Below, in pieces: positions 13,465 through 49,505 of a DNA stretch of 64,000 bases. The stretch comes from Ignavibacteriota bacterium. Lineage in GTDB: Bacteria > Bacteroidota > Ignavibacteria > UBA10030 > SZUA-254. The notes beneath the pieces were generated by a model that was not told the origin of the DNA, did not search any database, and saw nothing but the letters and a program-made list of their open reading frames with translations. Position 1 is the first letter of the stretch; the number at the start of each line of letters is the position of its first letter. The position numbers and the translations under genes are program-made. The stretch covers positions 24,178 to 88,177 of the forward strand of contig JACREZ010000040.1 in the NCBI GenBank assembly GCA_016212665.1, written 5' to 3'.

Positions 13465-14562
13465 ATGAAACTGACTGAAAAATTCATCCGCACGTTACCG
13501 AAAGTTTTACTCCACGACCACCTCGACGGCGGCTTACGTCCGCAAACAGTTATCGAATTAGCAAAGGATGTTAAATACAAAAAACTCCCTACTTCCGATG
13601 CAGGCGAACTTGCCGAATGGTTTCATCAGGGCGCACAACGCGGGAGTTTGCCTCTGTACTTAGAAGGCTTCGACCACACATGCGGAGTGATGCAAACGGA
13701 AGACGCTCTCGAACGGGTCTCATATGAAATGATGGAAGATATGAAGAAGGATGGAGTTGTGTATGTGGAAACGCGGTTTGCGCCGGTGTTTCATACAAAG
13801 AAAAAACTTCATTGGGATGAAGTTGTATCAGCAGTGCTACGAGGACTTGAACGAGGGAAGAAAGATTTTGGTGTTGAGTATGGGTTGATTATCTGCGCAA
13901 TGCGGAACATGCAACTTTCACTGGAGATGGCGGAACTTGCAGTTGATTTCCGTGAACGTGGCGTTGTCGGGTTTGACCTTGCCGGCGAAGAAGGCGGTTA
14001 TCCTCCAAAGAAACATGTTGATGCATTCCATTTAATCCAACGGGAAAATTTTAATATCACCATTCACGCCGGGGAAGGATTCGGGAAAGAATCAATCTGG
14101 CAGGCGATTCAATGGTGCGGCGCACATCGCATCGGACATGCAACGCGTCTCATTGATGACATCAAACTTGCTGACGATGACCCGACGGAAATAGTGAATA
14201 TGGGCTATCTTGCTCAGTACGTGTTAGATAAACGTATTCCGCTCGAAATGTGCCTGACAAGCAATGTTGATACCGGCGCGGTGCGAAGTCTTGAAGAACA
14301 TCCGTTCGGAATTTACTACCGCTACAAATTCCGCGTTACGTTGAACACCGATGACCGGCTAATGAGCAATACCACGCTCTCGAAGGAATTTAAACTCGCC
14401 CAGGATGTGTTCGGCTTGAAGTTGGATGAATTGGAAAAACTATCCATCAACGCAATGAAGAGTGCGTTCCTTCCCTATAAAAAACGTATCGGGATTATTT
14501 ATGATGTAATTAAACCGGGATATAAAGCGGCGCGAGAAAAATTGAAATCAAAGAAAAAATAA
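13465..14562 (+). CDS. add: Adenosine deaminase
   Basis: 'LPKVLLHDHLDGGLRPQTVIELAK', 'ITIHAGE', 'HRIGHA…', 'SLNTDDRLMS' are ADA Zn-ligand motifs. Start set at the internal ATG 'MKLTEKF'; the tracked 5' extension from 13204 is non-conserved. Confidence 0.85.
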   Translation: MKLTEKFIRTLPKVLLHDHLDGGLRPQTVIELAKDVKYKKLPTSDAGELAEWFHQGAQRGSLPLYLEGFDHTCGVMQTEDALERVSYEMMEDMKKDGVVYVETRFAPVFHTKKKLHWDEVVSAVLRGLERGKKDFGVEYGLIICAMRNMQLSLEMAELAVDFRERGVVGFDLAGEEGGYPPKKHVDAFHLIQRENFNITIHAGEGFGKESIWQAIQWCGAHRIGHATRLIDDIKLADDDPTEIVNMGYLAQYVLDKRIPLEMCLTSNVDTGAVRSLEEHPFGIYYRYKFRVTLNTDDRLMSNTTLSKEFKLAQDVFGLKLDELEKLSINAMKSAFLPYKKRIGIIYDVIKPGYKAAREKLKSKKK

Positions 14563-18520: not shown

Positions 18521-18925
18521 TTAAATAAAGTTTCGTTTACGAAGCCACTGATGCGCCCACGAAACAAACTCCTTGGCATCGTCACACATCAAACGGGCAT
18601 CGTTCTCGCTCACCGACATCCAATCATCATAGTCTCCCTGATTCCGCAATGTGAAAGCACGATGAAGCATCTTCGACCATGTTGTCTCAACTTCATTTGT
18701 CCTGACAAAATTTTTATCGAACAATGCCAGTACACCCGTATGCTTCGAACTTCCTAAATTCTTTGATAAGAGAATGGCAAGCGTTGCATAGAACATCGCG
18801 TAGTAAGCACGGTTCGCAGCGCCAAACGATTGACCGATTCCCAGCAATGTCTCTGCTTGTGTTACCGCATCGTTCGCTTGTTGCAAACGACGAGACATCA
18901 ACGCAGAAATATCGCCCTGATTCAT
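18521..18925 (-). CDS. HEPN-domain protein (HepT-like toxin)
   Basis: 'ANRAYYAMFYATLAILLSKNLGSSKHTGVLALF' is a HEPN helix pair. Start set at 'MNQGDISAL', giving the 4-bp ATGA overlap with the upstream MNT gene. Confidence 0.7.
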   Translation of the reverse strand: MNQGDISALMSRRLQQANDAVTQAETLLGIGQSFGAANRAYYAMFYATLAILLSKNLGSSKHTGVLALFDKNFVRTNEVETTWSKMLHRAFTLRNQGDYDDWMSVSENDARLMCDDAKEFVSWAHQWLRKRNFI

Positions 18926-19272
18926 AACGAAATTCCGGATTGATACACAGAAGTTATGAACGGTGAGGAGCGCCTTGGTGTTTTCCAAATCTCCGATGAA
19001 CCATAAACCCATACTTGGAACACGATATTATTTTCCATACCGGTCTTCCAGGCAAGGTCTTGTATTACCTGTTCAAGGGTTGATTTTTTTTCGGAATCGG
19101 GAACTTCGACCAACATATCCACATCGCTCTCTTCCAAGTTCGTTCTGTTTGCCGTCGAACCGTATAACAATATTTTTGCATCACGGCAATAAGAATGGAT
19201 AGCATCAGCAAGTTCTTTTGCAACAAGCACTCTGTCAGGTTTCGGAGATTGTGATTCAATAAGCATGGTCAA
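18922..19272 (-). CDS. Minimal nucleotidyltransferase (MntA-like antitoxin)
   Basis: 'AKILLYGSTANRTNLEESDVDMLVEV' is the GSx9-13DxD polymerase-beta-type NTase motif. Confidence 0.75.
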   Translation of the reverse strand: MTMLIESQSPKPDRVLVAKELADAIHSYCRDAKILLYGSTANRTNLEESDVDMLVEVPDSEKKSTLEQVIQDLAWKTGMENNIVFQVWVYGSSEIWKTPRRSSPFITSVYQSGISL

Positions 19273-22845: not shown

Positions 22846-23034
22846 ATGCTTGATACAAAAGAACAAGTAATCGAAATGATTAAAAAACTTCCCGATGATG
22901 TAACAGTTGACGATATCATGGGGGAATTATATTTCAAGATGCAAGTAGATTCGGGATTGAAAGAACTTGATGATGGGAAAGGAATTCAACACGAAGAAGT
23001 TGAGCGGCGGTTCTCTGCATGGCAAGCAAAATAA
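22846..23034 (+). CDS. Putative type II antitoxin (addiction-module component)
   Basis: 62-aa acidic protein immediately upstream of, and overlapping, a RelE/ParE toxin gene. Confidence 0.5.
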   Translation: MLDTKEQVIEMIKKLPDDVTVDDIMGELYFKMQVDSGLKELDDGKGIQHEEVERRFSAWQAK

Positions 23035-23312
23035 GGTGGTCGCCACGCGCCATCTCAAATCTTGAACATATCTACAAATATATAGCGACCGATTCTGAGT
23101 ATTATGCTTCATCGTTCATACGGCGATTGCTTTCAATCATCAGGGCAATACTAAGCTTCCCGTTTGCTGGACGCATCGTTCCTGAGTACAGCGATTATTT
23201 CCTCCGCGAAAAAATCTTCAAAAACTACCGAATAGTTTACCGAGTAAAAGAACCGCTCATCGAAATCGTTGCAATATGTCATTGCTCGAAACCATTGGAG
23301 GAAATACTGTAA
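23019..23312 (+). CDS. RelE/ParE-family toxin
   Basis: 'RWSPRAISNLEHIYKYIATDSEYYA…FREKIFKNYRIVYRV…IEIVAICH' is the ParE/RelE fold pattern. 16-bp overlap with the antitoxin gene. Confidence 0.7.
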   Translation: MASKIRWSPRAISNLEHIYKYIATDSEYYASSFIRRLLSIIRAILSFPFAGRIVPEYSDYFLREKIFKNYRIVYRVKEPLIEIVAICHCSKPLEEIL

Positions 23313-28674: not shown

Positions 28675-29186
28675 AAAAATTCCTGAGTAATTATATCACA
28701 AATAATATACTTAATGGAATCTACGAAATCAAGTACTTCATCTAAAATATTTCCCGGATTGAAATAAGAAGTGTGTTATCCCTGAGCCGAAGCGCCGATG
28801 AGAAGATGAATCCTTGTTTCTTTTCCGATGGCATTAAATGCGGTGTCGGAAGTTTCCTTCCGAAACGAGAGCCACTCAAATTCATTCTGTTTTGACTGTA
28901 ATTCATTTCCCGCGAATATACATCATTCCTTTTTTCAATCAAACAAAAACTGTAGTGTTGCTATCAAAAAAATATGTAGTGACTCCCAACCAATCAGGAC
29001 GATTGGACACAACGAATGCAGAACAATTCCGTTTTCTATTTTCGTCCGAGTACGAATCGGACTCTCCAACGAAAAAATGTAGATGTCTCAAAAGCACGGT
29101 TTACGACAGCCCGACCTAAAAAACCCACAACCTGTGGGACAAATGATTTCTTCAAAAATGATTACATTCAGCAGAGAAAACCATAA

Positions 29187-29690
29187 ATGAAATTCCTTGC
29201 TATAGATTTTGAAACTGCCGACTACGGGCGCGATAGCGCGTGCGCTGTCGGGTTGGTGCGCGTGGAGAATAATATCATCGTGAAGAAAGAGACACACCTG
29301 ATTCGCCCGCCGAGAAGAAATATTCACTTCTCTTATCTTCATGGAATTACATGGGACGATGTGAAGCATCAACCAACATTCGGAGAGTTATGGGAAGAGA
29401 TTCATGCAATGATGCACGATGTAGATTTTCTCGTCGCTCATAATGCAAGTTTCGACAAAGGCGTGCTTTATGCGTGTTGTCAATCGGCAGGAATAACACC
29501 GCCGGATATCCCGTTTAAATGTACCGTGAAACTCTCGCGGCAATTATGGAAATTGAAACCGGCAAATCTTGCGGCCGTGTGCCGGCATTTCGGAATTCCG
29601 CTCAGGCACCACGATGCGGCTTCGGATACGGAAGCGTGTGCGAAAATTATGATTCGCGCGTTAGAGACGATGAAGCAATCTCCGGGTTGA
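29187..29690 (+). CDS. DEDDh 3'-5' exonuclease (DnaQ/PolIII-epsilon-like)
   Basis: Exo I 'LAIDFETAD', Exo II 'LVAHNASFDKGVL' and Exo III 'HHDAASDTEACAKI'. Confidence 0.8.
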   Translation: MKFLAIDFETADYGRDSACAVGLVRVENNIIVKKETHLIRPPRRNIHFSYLHGITWDDVKHQPTFGELWEEIHAMMHDVDFLVAHNASFDKGVLYACCQSAGITPPDIPFKCTVKLSRQLWKLKPANLAAVCRHFGIPLRHHDAASDTEACAKIMIRALETMKQSPG

Positions 29691-29825
29691 ATTTTTCAAA
29701 ACAGAGTCGTACATTACCCCATCATTTTTGTCATCCGTTCTTTTGAACCAACCGTCATTGAGAATCCCGTTCATCATGTATCAGAACGGGATGAAGCAAT
29801 CTCTCCGCCGAGATAGAAACACAAC

Positions 29826-29905
29826 GCGGGATTGTGAGCGCCTTGCGCCAGCCCTTTGGGACTTCGTCGTTCCAACTCTAACGGAACTCCTCGCAAAGAC
29901 GCTTT
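29826..29905 (+). repeat. Intergenic repeat element copy A (~75 nt, family shared with 34306–34375)
   Basis: 'GGGATTGTGAGCGCCTTGCGCCAGCCCTTTGGGACTTCGTCG…CTCCTCGCAAAGACGCTTT' is ~85% identical to copy B apart from an 11-nt indel. The two copies are open in different frames, so the element is non-coding. Confidence 0.6.
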
Positions 29906-29935
29906 ACGTGAACAATATTTATAAAAGGAAAATTT

Positions 29936-30325
29936 ATGGACGACAATTCATCACGCATACTCATGATCATCATTGCATTGCTGATAGGCATCAGCAGTGT
30001 TTCATTTCTTTTGTTCTTTCTTTTCAAAACATACAAACGCAACAACAGGGTGATTGACGAAGCGGAGGATATTCAGGGCGCGGTTCATTATCAATGCCCG
30101 AAGTGCAATCAGCACATGGAGCGGGGAATGGCGTTAGCCGGACGGGGTATCATTTACAAAGCCGACGACGGAAAACCCATCAGCTCGTTTTCAACCATCA
30201 ATCAGGTGTTGGAAAACACCTTGAGCATGTCGCTTCCTCCCGCGTTTAACCGGGCATGGCATTGCAACAACTGTAAATATTTGTTGCTGGACCATAGCGT
30301 GTTGGTGAAGAAGAAAAAGAAATAA
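29936..30325 (+). CDS. Hypothetical membrane-anchored protein with two CxxC pairs (Zn-ribbon-like)
   Basis: One N-terminal TM helix, then 'YQCPKCNQHM…WHCNNCKYLL', ending in a poly-Lys tail. Confidence 0.5.
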   Translation: MDDNSSRILMIIIALLIGISSVSFLLFFLFKTYKRNNRVIDEAEDIQGAVHYQCPKCNQHMERGMALAGRGIIYKADDGKPISSFSTINQVLENTLSMSLPPAFNRAWHCNNCKYLLLDHSVLVKKKKK

Positions 30326-30714: not shown

Positions 30715-31932
30715 TTAGTATTCTTTCCGATTCGCGTACATATTCAACAACAGCCCGACCATAAGTAGATTGGTAATCATGTTTGAGCCGCCGTAACTCA
30801 TAAGCGGAAGCGGAACACCGATAACCGGAACAATTCCCATGCACATGCCGATGTTGATGGCAACATGTACGGTGAACGTTGCGACGATACCGATTGCAAC
30901 GATACTTGCAAACTTATTTTTTGCAAGCGATGCAATCTTGATTCCCCGAAAGAGTAACAGGGCGAGTAATATCAGCACGAAACACGCTCCAAGAAACCCG
31001 AACTCTTCACTCGGAACGCAGAAAATAAAATCAGTCCATTGTGCGGGGATAAAGTTGAGTTGCGTCTGTGAACCTTGCAGGTATCCTTTCCCGGTGAAGC
31101 CGCCGGAACCGATGGCAATTTTCGCCTGAATGATATTGTACCCCGCGCCGAGCGGGTCTGCTTCGTTATTGATGAAGGTAAGAATACGGTTCTGTTGGTG
31201 CGGTGCGAGCCGCGCAAAAATAAACTGCACGGAAACACCGACCAACGTTGTCAGCGAGAAGACGATGGCAGAGCCGAGTTTGTTTTCGCGAAGAAGAAGC
31301 AACACAACAAACGTAAGCGCGGTGACGATGAGAAACGGAGTTGTTCCGAACAGCGCGGCGATCGCGGCGGCGCCGGGTGCAATTACCGCAAGCACGAATA
31401 AGACTGATAATCCCGACCAATACATCAGCAAGAGCAACATGCCGAGATAAATAATCGCCGTTCCGACATCGGGCTGTAACACAATCAACCCGACAGGAAT
31501 GAGGACGAATCCCGCCGCCATGACGATGTGTTTGAACCGGAACAGGTACACATTGCCGCGGGAAAGAAATGTTGCCAAAGCGAGGATGGTCGTCGCTTTC
31601 ACAAGTTCCGATGGTTGCAATCCGAATCCGCTGACACCGAACCAACTCGTCGAGCCGGCGATACTGCGACCGAGAACCAACACGGCGGCAAGCAAGAGCA
31701 ACGAAATTCCGTACGCCGGATACGACCATTGCTGAATTGTCCGGAACGGAATGAACATGACTATCATCATCCCAAGCAAGCCGACACCAATCCACATCAG
31801 TTGGCGATAGAAGACGACCGACGCGCCAGCATCATACGTTGCACTATACACCGAGAGCGCGCTCATCGAGACGAGCAACAACACAACGAGTAGCGTTACG
31901 CCGTCAATGCTCTCTTTGAACCAGTTGTCCAT
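30715..31932 (-). CDS. rodA: Rod-shape-determining protein RodA (FtsW/RodA/SpoVE family)
   Basis: Ten-TM SEDS protein placed immediately downstream of mrdA in the mre cluster. Confidence 0.9.
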   Translation of the reverse strand: MDNWFKESIDGVTLLVVLLLVSMSALSVYSATYDAGASVVFYRQLMWIGVGLLGMMIVMFIPFRTIQQWSYPAYGISLLLLAAVLVLGRSIAGSTSWFGVSGFGLQPSELVKATTILALATFLSRGNVYLFRFKHIVMAAGFVLIPVGLIVLQPDVGTAIIYLGMLLLLMYWSGLSVLFVLAVIAPGAAAIAALFGTTPFLIVTALTFVVLLLLRENKLGSAIVFSLTTLVGVSVQFIFARLAPHQQNRILTFINNEADPLGAGYNIIQAKIAIGSGGFTGKGYLQGSQTQLNFIPAQWTDFIFCVPSEEFGFLGACFVLILLALLLFRGIKIASLAKNKFASIVAIGIVATFTVHVAINIGMCMGIVPVIGVPLPLMSYGGSNMITNLLMVGLLLNMYANRKEY

Positions 31933-33738
31933 TTGTTTCTTTCACTGTTTTGTTTTCTGCCTGCGCGGGTGCAGGTTTGTCGCGGTTGATAAATCTGTTC
32001 AGATATTTTTCGATGCAGAGTCCGGCAATCGGAGCGGCTTCCACTCCGCCGTATCCCGCATTTTCCACCAGCGCGCAAATTGCAATCTTCGGATTTTCCG
32101 ATGGCGCATAACCGACAAACCACGCGTGGTCTTTCCCGTGCGGATTCTGCGCTGTTCCCGTTTTTCCCGAAACAGAAATCCCGCTCACCTTTGCCGAACT
32201 TCCCGTTCCACCCGGTTCCATCACTGCGCGGCGCAATCCTTCCTGAATCAATTCCCATGTTTGATGTTTCATTTCAAATTTCCTGCCCGGTACAGAAACA
32301 TCAAACACTTTTCCGTTCTCTTTTTCTTTCACGCTCTTCACCACGTGCGGCGTGTAGAACGTTCCCCGGTTTGCCAGCATCGCCGAGTACGCCGCCATCT
32401 GTAACGGCGACACGCCGACTTCTCCCTGACCGATAGACAAACTAATGAGATATCCCTTCGTCCATTTTCCTTTGCCATACACTTTATCAAAAAATTCTTT
32501 CGAGGGAAGCAAGCCCGGGTCTTCTTCAAAAATATCGAGTCCGGTTTTTTGTCCGAAACCGAATTGCGCACCGTACTCTGTCCACCGCTCGAAGCCGACC
32601 TTCAACATCAACTGATAAAAAAAGACGTTGCATGAACGCTGAATCGCTTCAACAACATTCGTCGAGCCATGCACATGCAAATCTTTAAACACATGGTCGC
32701 CAAAACGAAACGCGCCGGAACAGTTCACGCGCCAATCCTGTGTGATGATTCCTTCGTTCAGCGCGGCGGCGGCAAGTACCATTTTGAATGTCGAGCCGGG
32801 AGGATAACGCGTCAGCGTCGCGCGGTTGAAGAGCGGTTTTGCAGGGTCGTTATTCAATGCAGACCAGACTGCTTGCGAAGTAAATCCGGTGAGAAGCGCC
32901 GGGTCGAAATCAGGCTTACTGACCATGGCGAGAATTCCGCCGTCCGTCGGGTCAATGGCTACAACCGCGCCCTGTTTTCCGAGAGCAACGATTCGGCAAA
33001 TGCCTGCAAATCAACATCAATCGTCAGCAATAAATCGTTTCCTTCTTTATCGGGAATATCATTCTTCCCTTCGTTGAAGGATTGAACTTTTTGTCCCCAC
33101 GCATTCACGGTGATGAACTCGAATCCTTTTTTGCCGCGAAGTTCCCTTTCATACTTCGCTTCGATTCCTGTCGCGCCAATCATATCGCCCGGCTGATATT
33201 CGGACGTAACGGAGAGAAGTCGTTCGGGAATTTCTTTCGTGTAACCGACAAGGTGAGCAAGTTTCGCTTTGGTCGGCAAGTATCGTTTTGTTTCTGTTTG
33301 ATAATCAACGCCGGGAAGTTTGTCACGGTGTTCTTCCAGAACGGAAAGCGTTTTGAAATCAATGTCGCGTTTGATTTTTGTCGGGGCGAAGCGGTTGTAG
33401 CGGATTCCCCGTTTTACTCTGTCGAAAATAAACACCGGGTCAAGCCGCAACGTCGAAGAGAGAAATGAGGCCGCTTCCGATTTGAACTCCGAGGGCGTAA
33501 TCGTCATCGTGTATGCGGGGCGATTATCAACAATTATTTTTCCGTTCCGGTCAAGGATGTACCCGCGAATCGGGTCACGCGCAATCGGTCGGATGCTGTT
33601 CTCCTCCGATTTTTTTCCATACACATCGTGATAGAGAATCTGAAGTTGCAGGAGTCGCCCGAAAAAGAGAACGAACATCATCGCTATTCCCCACACAAAC
33701 AGCCGCTTCCTGTTTGATTCTTCAAAACTATTCCACAT
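31904..33738 (-). pseudogene. mrdA: Penicillin-binding protein 2 (MrdA) interrupted by a frameshift near 32965–32972; tracked as ORFs 32959..33738 (N-terminal dimerisation domain) and 31904..32926 (transpeptidase domain)
   Basis: N-part ends '…DVDLQAFAESLLSENRARL*'. The adjacent frame continues '…IVALGKQGAVVAIDPTDGGILAMVSKPDFDP…' with SxxK and the KTG triad ('GKTGTAQ'). Removing 2 nt in 'CGCGCC' restores '…SENRAVVAIDP…'. Confidence 0.8.
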
Positions 33739-34234
33739 TGACCTTCACCGATGTTCGTGCAACAATCATAACAGGAAATAACGAGACGAGCGTTGTGTAG
33801 AGTGTTGTCGTGACGCCATACTCGACAATCGCCGACACCAAGCCGATGTCTGAGCCGCGCGTGAAGAGAAGAAAGTAGAGAATGTTCTGCGCGAACGAAG
33901 AAAGAAAAACGACAATCAGAAACCGGTAACTTCCAAGCGTAAATTTGTTTTGACCTTCTTCGTGAAAGTAACCGGCGATGAACCCGCCGAATGTTTTCGT
34001 CAGCGCGGATAGACCTATAAAACTTCCCGCCATCATATCAATTCCCAACCCGACGAGAAACCCCCACATAGTTCCGCTTAGTTGTCCTTCCTTCACGGCG
34101 AGGTACACGATAAAAATTGCAAGCAAATCGGGAGCGATGTCTGCGACGCTGAGATAGCGCGCAATCGTCGTCTGCACAACGATGAGAAGAAACCCTACAA
34201 ACGCAAAACGAAATTGCCGCGCTATCATGAGCAT
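33728..34234 (-). CDS. mreD: Rod-shape-determining protein MreD
   Basis: Small polytopic membrane protein between mreC and mrdA, with an MreD-like hydrophobic pattern. Confidence 0.75.
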   Translation of the reverse strand: MLMIARQFRFAFVGFLLIVVQTTIARYLSVADIAPDLLAIFIVYLAVKEGQLSGTMWGFLVGLGIDMMAGSFIGLSALTKTFGGFIAGYFHEEGQNKFTLGSYRFLIVVFLSSFAQNILYFLLFTRGSDIGLVSAIVEYGVTTTLYTTLVSLFPVMIVARTSVKVNVE

Positions 34235-34305
34235 ACTGCTGAATTGTCTTTGCGAGTCCCGCTTTTATCGGGGCGAAGCAATCTCACTATTGAAAGTAGA
34301 ATCAA

Positions 34306-34375
34306 ACGTGGGATTGTGTACGCAATGCGCCATCCCATTGGGACTTCGTCGCTTCGCTCCTCGCAAAGACACTTT
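34306..34375 (+). repeat. Intergenic repeat element copy B, inside the mreC–mreD spacer
   Basis: 'GGGATTGTGTACGCAATGCGCCATCCCATTGGGACTTCGTCGCTTCGCTCCTCGCAAAGACACTTT'. Flanked by the inverted repeat 'GTCTTTGCGAGTCCC' (34244–34258) / 'GGGACT…CTCGCAAAGAC'. Confidence 0.6.
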
Positions 34376-34397
34376 TTAGTATTTGGTAACACACCCA

Positions 34398-35231
34398 TCA
34401 TTTGCCTTCAGGTGATTGATGTTCAATGACGGTACGGCTCGTATCCGGTGTGAGGAGAACGATGAATGCCTGTTCAAGGCGAATGAAATCCACGCTCGGC
34501 TCGATTTCAATATCTTTGAAGAGCGACGCGGGTTTTTCTTCGACATGAACGACGCGCCCGATTCGAACACGGGGAGGAAACACATTGCTGTACTCTGAGG
34601 TGACAACGATGTCTCCCTGAACGACATCCTGCTTTTTCGGAACGTTCTTCAGGCGGACAAACTCGCCGCCATCCCACGCGATAATTCCATCCACGCGGCT
34701 TCGCTCCACTTTTGCGCTCGCCCGAAAATCTTTGTTGAACATCAACTGCCCGACGGAAAAACGACTGCTCGTCGTTGTAATTTTCCCGACCAATCCTGCT
34801 TCGGAGATGATTGGCATATCGGGTTTCACTCCATCCGCTTCGCCGACGTTGAGCGTGATGGTGTTTCTCAGCATGTGCGTACTTTTTGCCACAACGTCCG
34901 CGGCGAGAATCGGGTACGGACTCGACTCACGCAGCCCCAGCATTTCTCTCAGTTTGATGTTTTCCAGCCGCGCTTCGCGCAAGCGGCTCACTTCATCAGC
35001 AAGATTCACATTCAACTGCCGGAGAATTTCGTTCTCTCGTTGCAACTGAAATACATTGGGTATGACCGAGAGCGCATCCTGTACAAGTCCGATAAACCCG
35101 ACAGTGTATGCGCGCACTTCCCGCAACTGCGGATTATCATTTGCGCTGAGAAGAAGTAATGAAACGAGAATGAGGAGGGAGAAAACGAGATATTCTCTGA
35201 GAGAACGAACTAAACCGAAAAGTCTTTGCAT
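34398..35231 (-). CDS. mreC: Rod-shape-determining protein MreC
   Basis: N-terminal TM helix, coiled-coil region and C-terminal beta domain; located directly downstream of mreB. Confidence 0.85.
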   Translation of the reverse strand: MQRLFGLVRSLREYLVFSLLILVSLLLLSANDNPQLREVRAYTVGFIGLVQDALSVIPNVFQLQRENEILRQLNVNLADEVSRLREARLENIKLREMLGLRESSPYPILAADVVAKSTHMLRNTITLNVGEADGVKPDMPIISEAGLVGKITTTSSRFSVGQLMFNKDFRASAKVERSRVDGIIAWDGGEFVRLKNVPKKQDVVQGDIVVTSEYSNVFPPRVRIGRVVHVEEKPASLFKDIEIEPSVDFIRLEQAFIVLLTPDTSRTVIEHQSPEGK

Positions 35232-47858: not shown

Positions 47859-48866
47859 TTATCCGTTCTCTGTATTCAAATAATTCCTTTTCGTTCGATA
47901 CATCAACAAATATCCACGTTTGCTTGGTTCATCCAAAAAGGAACGATTTGTCAGCGTTACAACCATGCGTTGTTCCTCCAAGAAAGGAATTAACAATTTT
48001 TCAATCCTGCCTTCTGTTACTCCAATACGTTTTCCGAATTCAATAAAATCCGCTTTGGATGGATGTCCGCTCTTACCTCGGTAACGTTTTGCATCGGCAA
48101 ACAATCCTTTACTCAAAGCAAAATCAGAATCGTCCACATGCAGTCTTGTATTGATTACATCATACGCAGGGCTGAGAAGGTAATCACCTTTCGAGGATTC
48201 GAGAAGCGAAATGTTTTTCAAGTGTGCATCTCCGTTCGAGAACAAATAGTTGAACACTACTAACAAGAAAAATTTTTCTATTTCCACGCGCCACGCAGGG
48301 ACGTATTGTTGTATCAGGAATCCAATCTCTTCGTAACTGAACTCATACTTGAAATTCGCGCCTGCATTATCTTTCGTTTTTCCAGCAAGCGAGGCAAAAT
48401 CTTCTTTCCCTCGTTTTCTTCCATTATCATCCACATCAAACCGCTTGGTGATGTAAGCGTGTGTGCCATCTTTGAAAAATATCATAGCATTTTCAGCGGT
48501 GGTTATTCCATACACTTGCTTTGCGATTTGCATGGTCAGATGTTCGTTTGCCGGGACCTGAGTAACATTCTTCAAATCTCTCGGAATCGGTTTCAGGATG
48601 TATGTTCCTTGTTCGCCTTCGTTCGTCAACCGCAACACATTTTTCTCTAAGATGAAACTCAACTTTTCCTGAACGCCTGAGATAGAGATGCGTTTACGAT
48701 TATCTCTGAACTGCTCAGCCACCTCTTCGTTTTGTTCCGGCGCGTCGTAGGGCAATACATGGCTTACTTTCTTCCCATGAAAGAGATTCCGCAAACAACC
48801 CGGACTGTAGGTAGAAAATCCTTCTGCCAATGTTCCGGGACAATATGGTATCTGCACTCCGCTCAT
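47859..48866 (-). CDS. hipT: HipT-type toxin kinase (HipA C-terminal kinase domain, 335 aa)
   Basis: Gly-rich loop with the 'SIS' motif ('KRISISGVQEKLSF') and catalytic 'FSNGDAHLKNISLL'. Length matches HipT of tripartite HipBST systems. Confidence 0.85.
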   Translation of the reverse strand: MSGVQIPYCPGTLAEGFSTYSPGCLRNLFHGKKVSHVLPYDAPEQNEEVAEQFRDNRKRISISGVQEKLSFILEKNVLRLTNEGEQGTYILKPIPRDLKNVTQVPANEHLTMQIAKQVYGITTAENAMIFFKDGTHAYITKRFDVDDNGRKRGKEDFASLAGKTKDNAGANFKYEFSYEEIGFLIQQYVPAWRVEIEKFFLLVVFNYLFSNGDAHLKNISLLESSKGDYLLSPAYDVINTRLHVDDSDFALSKGLFADAKRYRGKSGHPSKADFIEFGKRIGVTEGRIEKLLIPFLEEQRMVVTLTNRSFLDEPSKRGYLLMYRTKRNYLNTENG

Positions 48867-49192
48867 TGCATCGCAATCGGTTTTACCGTAACGGCTCCGA
48901 TTGTATCGTATTGTGCCGTTGCCATCAGCAGACCAAAATTATCTTCTTCATCAATTTTCAGATGTGTACATTGCAATTTCCTGTTCACCCCCTCGCTCAA
49001 CATGTTGAAGAAATACGGAAACAAAATTTCGCTCCGGTATTCCTGTTGAGTCTTTGGAAGCGTTACACTGATTGCCGGTTTGCTGTTGTCGTTGAAGTAG
49101 GCATCATCATAGCGGAAAACAAAATGATGCCGGTCGTCCTCCGCCAGAATACCTGCAAATATTCCGTTGCGATATACGTTTGCCTGTCTCAT
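48863..49192 (-). CDS. hipS: HipS (HipA N-terminal-domain homologue; antitoxin of HipBST systems)
   Basis: 109 aa, 'VYRNGIFAGIL…FRYDDAY…' is a HipA_N/couple_hipA fold. 4-bp ATGA overlap with hipT. Confidence 0.8.
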   Translation of the reverse strand: MRQANVYRNGIFAGILAEDDRHHFVFRYDDAYFNDNSKPAISVTLPKTQQEYRSEILFPYFFNMLSEGVNRKLQCTHLKIDEEDNFGLLMATAQYDTIGAVTVKPIAMQ

Positions 49193-49196
49193 GGAA

Positions 49197-49427
49197 TTAC
49201 AGTTTTCCCGCTTTCCCCGCAGGCAGATTCATGACTTCAAGTTTCAATTCCATGCCGAGCACTTCTGCTAATTTGTTCAAGACATCTAACGAAGGATTGC
49301 CCTGACCTCTCTCCAATTTATACAACGTGTTCGTGCTGATGTTGGCTAACTCTGCAAGATGCGGCTGAGTGATTCCAAGTTCTTTTCTCCGGCGCTTTAT
49401 CGTTTCACCGATATATTTGGCTAACAT
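49197..49427 (-). CDS. hipB: HipB (XRE-family HTH protein)
   Basis: 'IKRRRKELGITQPHLAELANISTNTLYKLERGQGNPSLDVLNKLAEVLG' is an XRE HTH. Start set at the internal ATG; 4 nt upstream of hipS. Confidence 0.8.
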   Translation of the reverse strand: MLAKYIGETIKRRRKELGITQPHLAELANISTNTLYKLERGQGNPSLDVLNKLAEVLGMELKLEVMNLPAGKAGKL

Positions 49428-49505
49428 TATAGTGTGATTTTTTGAGCAAATGTAATAAGAAAAGCCTGACTTTGCAAGTAAAATCACAGTATAGTGTGAT
49501 TTAAT
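49428..49505. promoter_or_regulatory. Putative hipBST operator/promoter region
   Basis: 'TGTGATTTT'…'AAAATCACA' inverted repeat (49433–49441 / 49481–49489) and duplicated 'TAGTGTGATT' boxes (49430, 49493) directly upstream of hipB. Confidence 0.5.

Follow-up and report, generated by a model that had tools for sequence, protein, structure and literature searches.

The window analysed here, a 64-kb stretch of an Ignavibacteriota genome (contig JACREZ010000040.1), contains two copies of a palindromic repeat. Copy A lies between the genes for an RNase_T-type exonuclease (29187-29690, plus strand) and a DUF6487 protein (29936-30325, plus strand). Copy B fills the gap between mreC (34398-35231, minus strand) and mreD (33728-34234, minus strand) in an mreBCD-pbp2-rodA cluster. 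Both copies are located between co-directional genes and have the same plus-strand orientation, with their host genes on opposite strands. The best matches to the MreC protein carry the names Ignavibacteriales or Ignavibacteriae, and according to Pfam scans the 56 larger open reading frames (ORFs) of the window are ordinary chromosomal genes.

In a repeat search of the window, positions 29823-29869 were paired with 34305-34351, a match of 47 nt with 85% identity (family D9). When copy A was queried against the whole window with blastn, copy B was recovered over 84 nt (78.6% identity, E 4.5e-13), the remaining matches all having E-values of at least 0.1. The repeat that a first-pass annotation had noticed here, in the same orientation, is thus real, but the roughly 75 nt it described correspond to the right-hand unit only; the left-hand half of the element, likewise common to both copies, had been missed. 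The core of copy A spans 29754-29900 (147 nt) and that of copy B 34246-34370 (125 nt), with the whole elements measuring about 150-170 nt and 168 nt, respectively (Table 1). The indel in the right-hand part, previously put at 11 nt, measures 12 nt, with a 17-nt hairpin in copy A against 5 nt in copy B. The differences between the copies are chiefly in hairpin loops and junctions. Motif searches and nhmmer revealed no further copy in the window, giving two in 64 kb.

Both copies are insertions absent from relatives

At the mre site, the window was compared with relatives whose MreC proteins are 96% (contigs L138/L139), 90% (L136/L137) and 89% (L140) identical. In all of them mreC and mreD overlap by ATGA, without intergenic DNA. 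On the gene strand, the empty site of L138/L139 reads GCAAATGATAACGCG, and the filled site of the window reads GCAAATGAT, then 168 nt, and then ATGATAGCGCG. Copy B is therefore an insertion of 168 nt accompanied by a duplication of 5 nt, which reads ATGAT along the genes and ATCAT on the plus strand. Because of this duplication, the mreC stop and the mreD start are both preserved; the two genes, now 163 nt apart, are intact. A REP-like element (REP, repetitive extragenic palindrome) has thus landed exactly on the overlapping stop and start of two translationally coupled cell-shape genes.

At the copy A site, the exonuclease and DUF6487 genes are 84-87 nt apart in relatives with exonuclease identities of 95% (L144) and 85% (L141-L143), compared with 245 nt in the window. 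The alignment with L144 breaks at 29752/29923, and those with L141 and L143 at 29745/29925. At most AAC is repeated at this site, which looks older. The relatives of both sites are 83-89% identical to the window at the DNA level (blastn). Both copies were inserted in intergenic DNA after the split from these relatives, and with such identities the insertions are lineage-specific and not very recent. The first-pass annotation had named a lack of further genomic copies, together with a lack of the element at homologous positions of relatives, as evidence against a repeat family; the element is indeed lacking at those positions, which we take as the mark of an insertion rather than of a chance match.

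Both insertions are also present in a 99.9-100% identical strain from read set SRR12113407, whose Logan contigs terminate at or inside both elements, as is expected of repeats or strong hairpins. In practical terms, the element breaks short-read assemblies, alters the annotated mreD start and yields spurious ORFs, such as one of 58 codons across copy B (34225-34401, minus strand); it should be masked as a repeat in annotation.

Some candidate features around copy A were rejected. A 3-kb islet inserted relative to L136 and containing copy A was considered, but synteny simply stops beyond rodA, and the window's 853-aa phosphorylase has no orthologue in the 854-aa gene of L136. A third, partial copy appeared to be present in the 3' end of the exonuclease gene, where the 14-mer GATGAAGCAATCTC (29669-29682) recurs at 29790-29803. 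The genic copy is native: L144, which is without the element, reads GATGAAGAAATCTC at this site. That the 14-mer recurs in copy A's left unit is due to chance or micro-homology, and the genic copy is no remnant of the element. A match of CCCATCATTT near both copies is also native, being present in the element-free relatives L144 and L141.

The neighbourhood shows further peculiarities of its own. The exonuclease and DUF6487 gene pair (29152-30325) adjoins rodA in the window and lies between A2M-like and DHDPS genes in an 81-90% identical relative; this two-gene block is all that is shared with L141-L143. In the cell-shape cluster, the PBP2 gene (mrdA, 31904-33738) is broken into two ORFs of 340 and 259 residues at about 32978, where the window has a run of four adenines (A4) and the 99.945% identical contig L121 has five (A5) and an intact 611-aa gene. 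The split may be a genuine frameshift or an error of sequencing or assembly. Toxin-antitoxin-like genes are scattered at 18521-19012, 23019-23312 and 47859-49487 (a HEPN-domain protein, a ParE toxin, and HipA with an adjoining HTH_3 protein).

Architecture of the element and its widespread unit

Each copy is an inverted pair of hairpin units, with the tags pointing outwards and the tails facing each other. A unit has the form YGTC-(A/T)TTGCGAG-variable hairpin-CGAAGCAAT-C. On the plus strand, the left unit of both copies reads (C/T)GTC-(A/T)TTG(C/A)GA(G/A)-hairpin-(C/T)GAAGCAAT-CTC, and the right unit is the reverse complement of such a unit, terminating in CTCGCAAAGAC. The base just outside the unit completes the tag: in copy A a C precedes the left unit (CGTC, 29753-29756) and a G follows the right unit (GACG, the complement of the tag, 29898-29901), and in copy B a T precedes the left unit (TGTC, 34245-34248), with GACA at the opposite end (34368-34371). 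The right unit of both copies contains 27 extra nucleotides between the canonical GATTG and CTTCG, made up of two small hairpins: GCGC-CTT-GCGC or CGC-AAT-GCG, plus CCC-WTT-GGG.

In copy B, the outer 11 nt are perfect terminal inverted repeats and the inner tails pair over 9 bp, CAATCTCAC (34279-34287) with GTGGGATTG (34308-34316). The unit tails are 28 nt apart, the top of the 22-28 nt range usual in canonical dimers. The core is predicted to fold as one branched long hairpin with the 9-bp central stem and side hairpins, and GCTTCGC at 34351-34357 is the complement of a GCGAAGC mini-hairpin. Compared with shuffled sequences, the two strands of copy B have fold z-scores of -5.3 and -6.3 as RNA and -4.6 and -6.0 as DNA. 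Copy A has a degenerate left end, although its left-unit hairpin comprises 7 bp (29765-29791), and its fold z-scores are between -1.2 and -2.3; the related element on metagenomic contig L132, described below, folds equally poorly overall (-1.2 to -2.3). The right extension of copy B partly resembles the right flank of copy A, GCTTTAC..GTGAAC. At 34268, in the left-unit hairpin of copy B, the window has T and the near-identical strain L121 has G, a difference that shortens the stem from 5 to 4 bp.

Table 1. Positions of the two copies and of their parts in the window
Feature	Positions	Strand	Basis
Copy B, entire insert (168 nt), between mreC stop and mreD start	34229-34396		L138/L139 blastn alignment stops at 34397 and resumes at 34228
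Left 5-nt duplication ATCAT (gene strand ATGAT), retains original mreD ATG	34224-34228		Empty site with single GCAAATGATAACG
Right 5-nt duplication ATCAT, retains mreC stop (34398-34400)	34397-34401		ATGAT on both sides of the insert in the window
Copy B left extension, 17 nt, GAGCATACTGCTGAATT	34229-34245	+	Conserved in unrelated locus L132, not in copy A
Copy B left unit: GTCTTTGCGAG, hairpin CCCG/CGGG (34258-34272), then CGAAGCAATCTC	34246-34285	+	nhmmer matches to canonical IMG/VR units
Copy B spacer between units, with inner TTGA/TCAA stem	34286-34309	+	Folds
Copy B right unit: GTCTTTGCGAGGA-GCGAAGC-GACGAAG-27-nt insert-CAATCCC (minus-strand reading)	34310-34370	-	Second copy of the first-pass annotation
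Lineage-specific 27-nt insert of copy B: hairpins CGC-AAT-GCG and TCCC-ATT-GGGA	34317-34343	+	Comparison with canonical GATTGCTTCGTCGCTTCGCTCCTCGCAATGAC
Copy B right extension, 26 nt, ACTTTTTAGTATTTGGTAACACACCC	34371-34396	+	Inside the inserted segment; not in L132
Copy A plus flanks, stretch without counterpart in relatives	29753-29922		L144 alignment breaks at 29752/29923
Copy A left unit: degenerate head GTCATTGAGAA, hairpin TCCCGTT/AACGGGA, then TGAAGCAATCTC	29754-29803	+	Sequence reading, fold
Copy A right unit: 27-nt insert (29835-29861), hairpin TTCC/GGAA (29870-29886), end CTCGCAAAGAC	29828-29900	-	

The two halves of the element have a very wide distribution when taken separately. In an nhmmer model built from three copies (A, B and L132), each half by itself matches canonical units, that is, units without the 27-nt insert. 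Searching IMG/VR with the pattern GATTGCTTCG-N5-35-CTCGCAAWGAC yielded the canonical unit in at least 120 contigs; the figures in this and the next paragraph describe 183 units in those loci, among the matches listed. The base before GTC is T or C in 176 of the 183. The stem consists of the 5 bp ATTGC/GCAAT and leads into an internal loop, GAG/CGAA, beyond which is a nested hairpin of 5-35 nt. Among the cores, CGAAG, CGCAG, CGTAG and CGGAG are the most frequent; they generate GCGNAGC, an extraordinarily stable DNA mini-hairpin motif. The tails are CCAG or CTC: 40 of the 183 units end in ...GCAATCCAG and a comparable number in ...GCAATCTC(A/C/G). In the window, the left units have tails of the CTC type and the right units CCC.

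Close pairs are arranged tail-to-tail in 19 of 29 cases, with gaps mostly of 22-28 nt. Units are found between co-directional ORFs in 50 instances, convergent ORFs in 15 and divergent ORFs in 4, and show no bias in orientation relative to the genes (26 same, 24 opposite). The variable core stems are Watson-Crick paired on both strands, with few G-T pairs. An apparent strand asymmetry of folding (the head strand folds better in 97 of 103 cases) was discarded, as it is due to the flanks fixed by the search pattern; the variable cores show no G-T asymmetry. On two phage-like IMG/VR contigs, L016 and L037, there are 6 and 5 units of the ATTGCGAG type, respectively, in one orientation throughout, most of them directly upstream of a ribosome-binding site and start codon.

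The variant with the 27-nt insert is another matter. A pattern specific for it gave no matches in viral contigs, five in species-representative genomes, all of them other mosaic variants, and eight in metagenomes. Seven of these eight are chance matches in coding DNA and one, on contig L132, is a true full-length relative, 80% identical to copy B over 143 nt (34229-34371). This alignment includes the 17 nt to the left of the inverted repeat, so that stretch belongs to the element. The extensions differ, however, with the 26-nt right one missing from L132 and the 17-nt left one from copy A. The 27-nt insert is common to copies A and B and L132, and an analogous form is present on contig L124. 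The first-pass annotation had called the family novel. This holds in a narrow sense only: the 27-nt-insert variant is rare, but the building block is extremely widespread, occurring in many bacteria and phages, and has the hallmarks of the CGTC-tagged REPs (PMC3733652). The repeat is real, but fairly ordinary in kind.

Two related loci have features of their own. On L132, an 89-nt direct repeat (96% identical) doubles the 3' end of a tyrS-like ORF (1827-2504); small membrane ORFs occupy the 589-nt segment between the repeat starts, and the element is directly next to the orphan repeat copy. The arrangement resembles the insertion of a small cassette accompanied by a long target duplication. 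In L136, the 90% relative, a degenerate element of the same kind is located at 13919-14077, downstream of a PIN-domain gene, reading GTCATTGCGAT ... CCTTTGGGACTTGTC ... AGAAGCAATCTCAC with about 140 nt between head and tail.

Candidate explanations for the element

The first-pass annotation had offered two readings, a REP-like or miniature inverted-repeat transposable element (MITE) and a small structured RNA. The first has held up: both copies are intergenic and palindromic and are missing at the homologous sites of relatives, and copy B is flanked by a 5-nt duplication. On balance, we regard the element as probably a non-coding, non-autonomous palindromic DNA repeat, an inverted dimer of units related to the CGTC REPs and to the NTS and SRM repeats, acting as single-stranded DNA (ssDNA). 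In this Ignavibacteriales lineage, the right-hand unit has the 27-nt double-hairpin insert and the full element, represented by copy B, is 168 nt long.

In this proposal, the element would work as DNA. Its units, when single-stranded, would fold into hairpins, and a hairpin-specific enzyme encoded in trans would read these hairpins along with the bases next to them, an unpaired GTC 5' and a C 3'. The likeliest enzyme would be a small GIY-YIG endonuclease of the Ssn type, specific for ssDNA and encoded elsewhere in the genome. Interaction with such an enzyme, and not an RNA product, would account for the conservation of head and tail across phyla. The proposal draws on the conserved head and tail, the GCGNAGC cores and the absence of any RNA-level signal; the Watson-Crick pairing of the cores and the lack of orientation bias favour a constraint at the DNA level rather than the RNA level. 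In the mre messenger RNA, the element would do no more than contribute a passive, stable hairpin, uncoupling the translation of mreC from that of mreD, and its effect on the operon is most likely only passive.

A structured small RNA or a cis-regulatory RNA (terminator, attenuator or riboswitch-like) conserved for its fold seems very unlikely to us. Copy B does fold far better than shuffled sequences on both strands, and hairpins are retained, with changes mostly in loops and one compensatory pair in the inner hairpin of L132 (GCGC/GCGC to GTGT/GCAC), but copy A and L132 fold poorly overall, copies A and B are oppositely oriented relative to their host operons, the canonical units have no strand bias relative to genes, and relatives have the same genes without the element at the same sites. 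No promoter-like or terminator-like sites are present inside the elements. An Rfam scan, one of the checks that the first-pass annotation had suggested, covered the window and 14 loci containing canonical units and gave no match at gathering thresholds, so neither the variant nor the canonical units correspond to an Rfam family; local scans by E-value produced chance-level matches only (E > 1).

That the element is a small gene or the remnant of one is barely credible. The 58-codon ORF through copy B is produced by the insertion itself, and among 5.8 billion predicted proteins none shares three 5-residue words with it. The two copies had been described as translatable only in different frames. 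In fact, one frame serves both copies over the shared 47 nt, but four of the six codon differences in that frame are non-synonymous. No frame is free of stops in all three copies, and which frames are open varies from copy to copy. These differences and stops indicate that the sequence of the element is not coding, in agreement with the nucleotide-level conservation originally put forward.

Several observations weigh against the ssDNA repeat reading. No gene for Ssn, RAYT or another transposase is present in the window: Pfam scans of its 56 ORFs gave no transposase or nuclease candidate, including the Y1_Tnp domain, and a motif scan of the window found no GIY-YIG protein. The 5-nt duplication points to an enzyme making staggered cuts; neither an ssDNA nuclease nor a Y1 transposase is known to leave such a duplication. 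The ends of the element vary: the left extension is missing from copy A and the right one from L132, and copy B has no inverted repeats at its very ends. The first stem pair of copy B is T-T, and the closing stems within its units are degenerate, with T-T and C-A mismatches. The published SRM pattern, HGTCWYN(0-2)YYVSBRHN(0-5)WNVSBRGN(0-2)RNCYNB, has no match in the 64-kb window, although the same expression does match the repeats around an Ssn-like gene on L124. Only one of the 120 viral contigs listed for the unit has a GIY-YIG-like ORF. With three independent copies of the variant known (A, B and L132), copy number and covariation are weakly supported. In the four described CGTC families, the stem is regular, with 8-9 bp, and the loop has 4-5 nt (PMC3733652), unlike the 5-bp stem, internal loop and variable nested hairpin of the units considered here.

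The ssDNA proposal does not account for the 5-nt duplication, the variable ends and the lack of a candidate enzyme gene in the window. On their account a plain MITE mechanism, which we judge unlikely, stays in contention. The element would then be a classical deletion derivative of an insertion sequence (IS), moved in cut-and-paste or copy-paste fashion by a DDE transposase from elsewhere that would recognise its ends and make a 5-bp staggered cut, and the resemblance to REPs and SRMs would be confined to its body. In copy B, the ATCAT duplication coincides with both edges of the 168-nt insert, which also has a perfect inverted repeat of 11-12 nt (GTCTTTGCGAG/CTCGCAAAGAC), and size, intergenic position and presence/absence polymorphism are typical. 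Yet the inverted repeats begin only 17 nt and 26 nt away from the duplication, the sequences actually bordering it, GAGCATAC... and ...ACACACCC, do not form an inverted repeat, the ends differ among copies A, B and L132, and no parent IS or transposase is found in the window. The duplication is clear at one site only, copy A having at most AAC.

A REPIN in the strict sense, that is, a REP doublet moved as ssDNA by a RAYT (an IS200/IS605-like Y1 HUH transposase), is more improbable still. The inverted hairpin doublet with an unpaired conserved tetranucleotide at each foot does reproduce the REPIN layout (PMC3733652, PMC6006769). However, the tag is CGTC or TGTC and not GTAG, no tyrosine transposase was found in association with CGTC repeats (PMC3733652), and Y1 transposition proceeds without target duplication. 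No HUH...Y (Y1) protein was found in the window or in 1.2 Mb of loci by a regular-expression search, which has limited sensitivity.

Relation to known repeat systems

Compared with known repeat classes, the element shares with MITEs such as Correia/NEMIS, ERIC and RUP a length of 100-170 nt, a largely palindromic and non-coding sequence, a location between or inside operon genes, presence/absence polymorphism and a short target duplication. It departs from them in the distance between duplication and inverted repeats, in its outermost ends and in having no known parent IS. REPINs and BIMEs of Pseudomonas and E. coli, mobilised by RAYT, resemble it in combining two inverted REP-like units and a short spacer into one long hairpin, in being mosaics of conserved motifs and variable hairpins, and in their intergenic position; the GTAG tag of REPINs, the absence of a RAYT from the window and the target duplication set them apart.

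The closest published class is the superfamily of CGTC-tagged REPs, CGTC-1 to CGTC-4, which includes the dRS3 repeats of Neisseria and the RPE-4 and RPE-6 repeats of Rickettsia (Di Nocera, De Gregorio, Rocco 2013, PMC3733652). Their tag is CGTC, often TGTC and also CCTC, their stem opens with A-T pairs, and a 3-nt tail follows, usually CCA. They form chiefly one type of inverted dimer (HH), are situated between genes that are co-directional or convergent, number from tens to thousands of copies per genome, and occur in five phyla, including Chlorobi and Bacteroidetes, without an associated transposase (PMC3733652). The units considered here are alike in having an unpaired CGTC or TGTC tag at one end and a stem opening with ATTGC...GCAAT. 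The short tail that follows is CCA or CTC in canonical units and CTC or CCC in the window, and may correspond to the published one. The units also form inverted dimers able to adopt a long hairpin, tail-to-tail in both window copies, and are likewise placed between co-directional or convergent genes, in many phyla, with no associated transposase. CGTC-3-like units, GTCATTGCCGGGCTTGACCCGGCAATCCAT, on contig L149 have exactly the same head, GTCATTGC, and tail, GCAATCCA. Unlike the CGTC REPs, the window variant adds the 27-nt double-hairpin insert and the 17- and 26-nt extensions, and one copy has a 5-nt target duplication. The peptides given for intragenic CGTC-1 to CGTC-4 repeats do not correspond to the unit, a comparison based on described features and peptides.

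The NTS repeats of Neisseria, CGTCATTCCCGCGMAVGCGGGAATCYRG, and the wider group of Ssn-related motifs (SRM) flank genes of small single-domain GIY-YIG proteins (cd10448) termed Ssn, which bind and cut them only as ssDNA and on one strand (Chenal et al. 2025, PMC11893778). Both binding and cleavage depend critically on the three bases preceding the palindrome on its 5' side and on the C that follows it. Ssn limits transformation by NTS-bearing DNA in Neisseria, the only genus for which a role in transformation has been shown (PMC11893778). The units described here are similarly hairpin-forming, multi-copy and often arranged in inverted pairs, with GTC directly 5' of a palindrome that starts with AT and C directly 3' of it. 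GTC, then (A/T)TTGC...GCAAT, then C is the order in the left units of copies A and B and in all canonical units listed; the right units have ACAAT followed by C. The differences are that the window has no ssn gene and that no ATTGCGAG-type units directly flanking an ssn gene were seen.

A lead that the units flank GIY-YIG genes had initially been set aside, as a motif scan of 1.18 Mb of unit loci gave only two GIY-YIG-like ORFs and no direct association. A first literature query on GIY-YIG genes and repeats returned fungal mitochondrial genome papers only, and literature matches to literal motif strings were chance primer matches. The lead was later partly rescued by the literature cited above and by two sets of contigs. 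L124, from an Ignavibacteriaceae metagenome-assembled genome and found with the unit pattern, has, in the region 400-1120, a single-domain, Ssn-like GIY-YIG gene (PF01541, E 1.3e-15) with TGTCATTCCGGGCGAGCGAAGCGAGACCCGGAATCCAG-type repeats of the SRM kind on both sides, and the double-hairpin variant of the unit about 370 nt upstream. Five IMG/VR homologues of the L124 protein (L145-L149) are all flanked by CGTC-type units, and the unit type of L149 has its head and tail in common with the window unit.

A more far-reaching idea, which we put forward tentatively and with more doubt than confidence, is that the ATTGCGAG-type unit (YGTC-ATTGCGAG-GCGNAGC or other hairpin-CGAAGCAAT-C) may represent a distinct, undescribed and very widespread branch of the CGTC/SRM repeats, present in several bacterial phyla and in many phage-like contigs and served by an ssDNA-hairpin enzyme of its own. 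If this were true, current SRM searches would miss this branch, and the 168-nt derivative, with datable insertions and a 5-nt duplication, would offer a rare way into the question of how 'transposase-less' repeats move. How CGTC-type REPs spread with no associated transposase has been a question since 2013; clean filled and empty sites with a visible target duplication make the two copies useful material for it, and the same lineage would be useful for testing Ssn-type nucleases on this type of unit. As they depart from the SRM pattern and from the 8-9 bp stem, we file the window units as an undescribed member or relative, though not a proven member, of the class formed by the CGTC REPs and SRM repeats, with which they share the outward tag, the A-T-opened stem and the tail-to-tail arrangement in inverted pairs.

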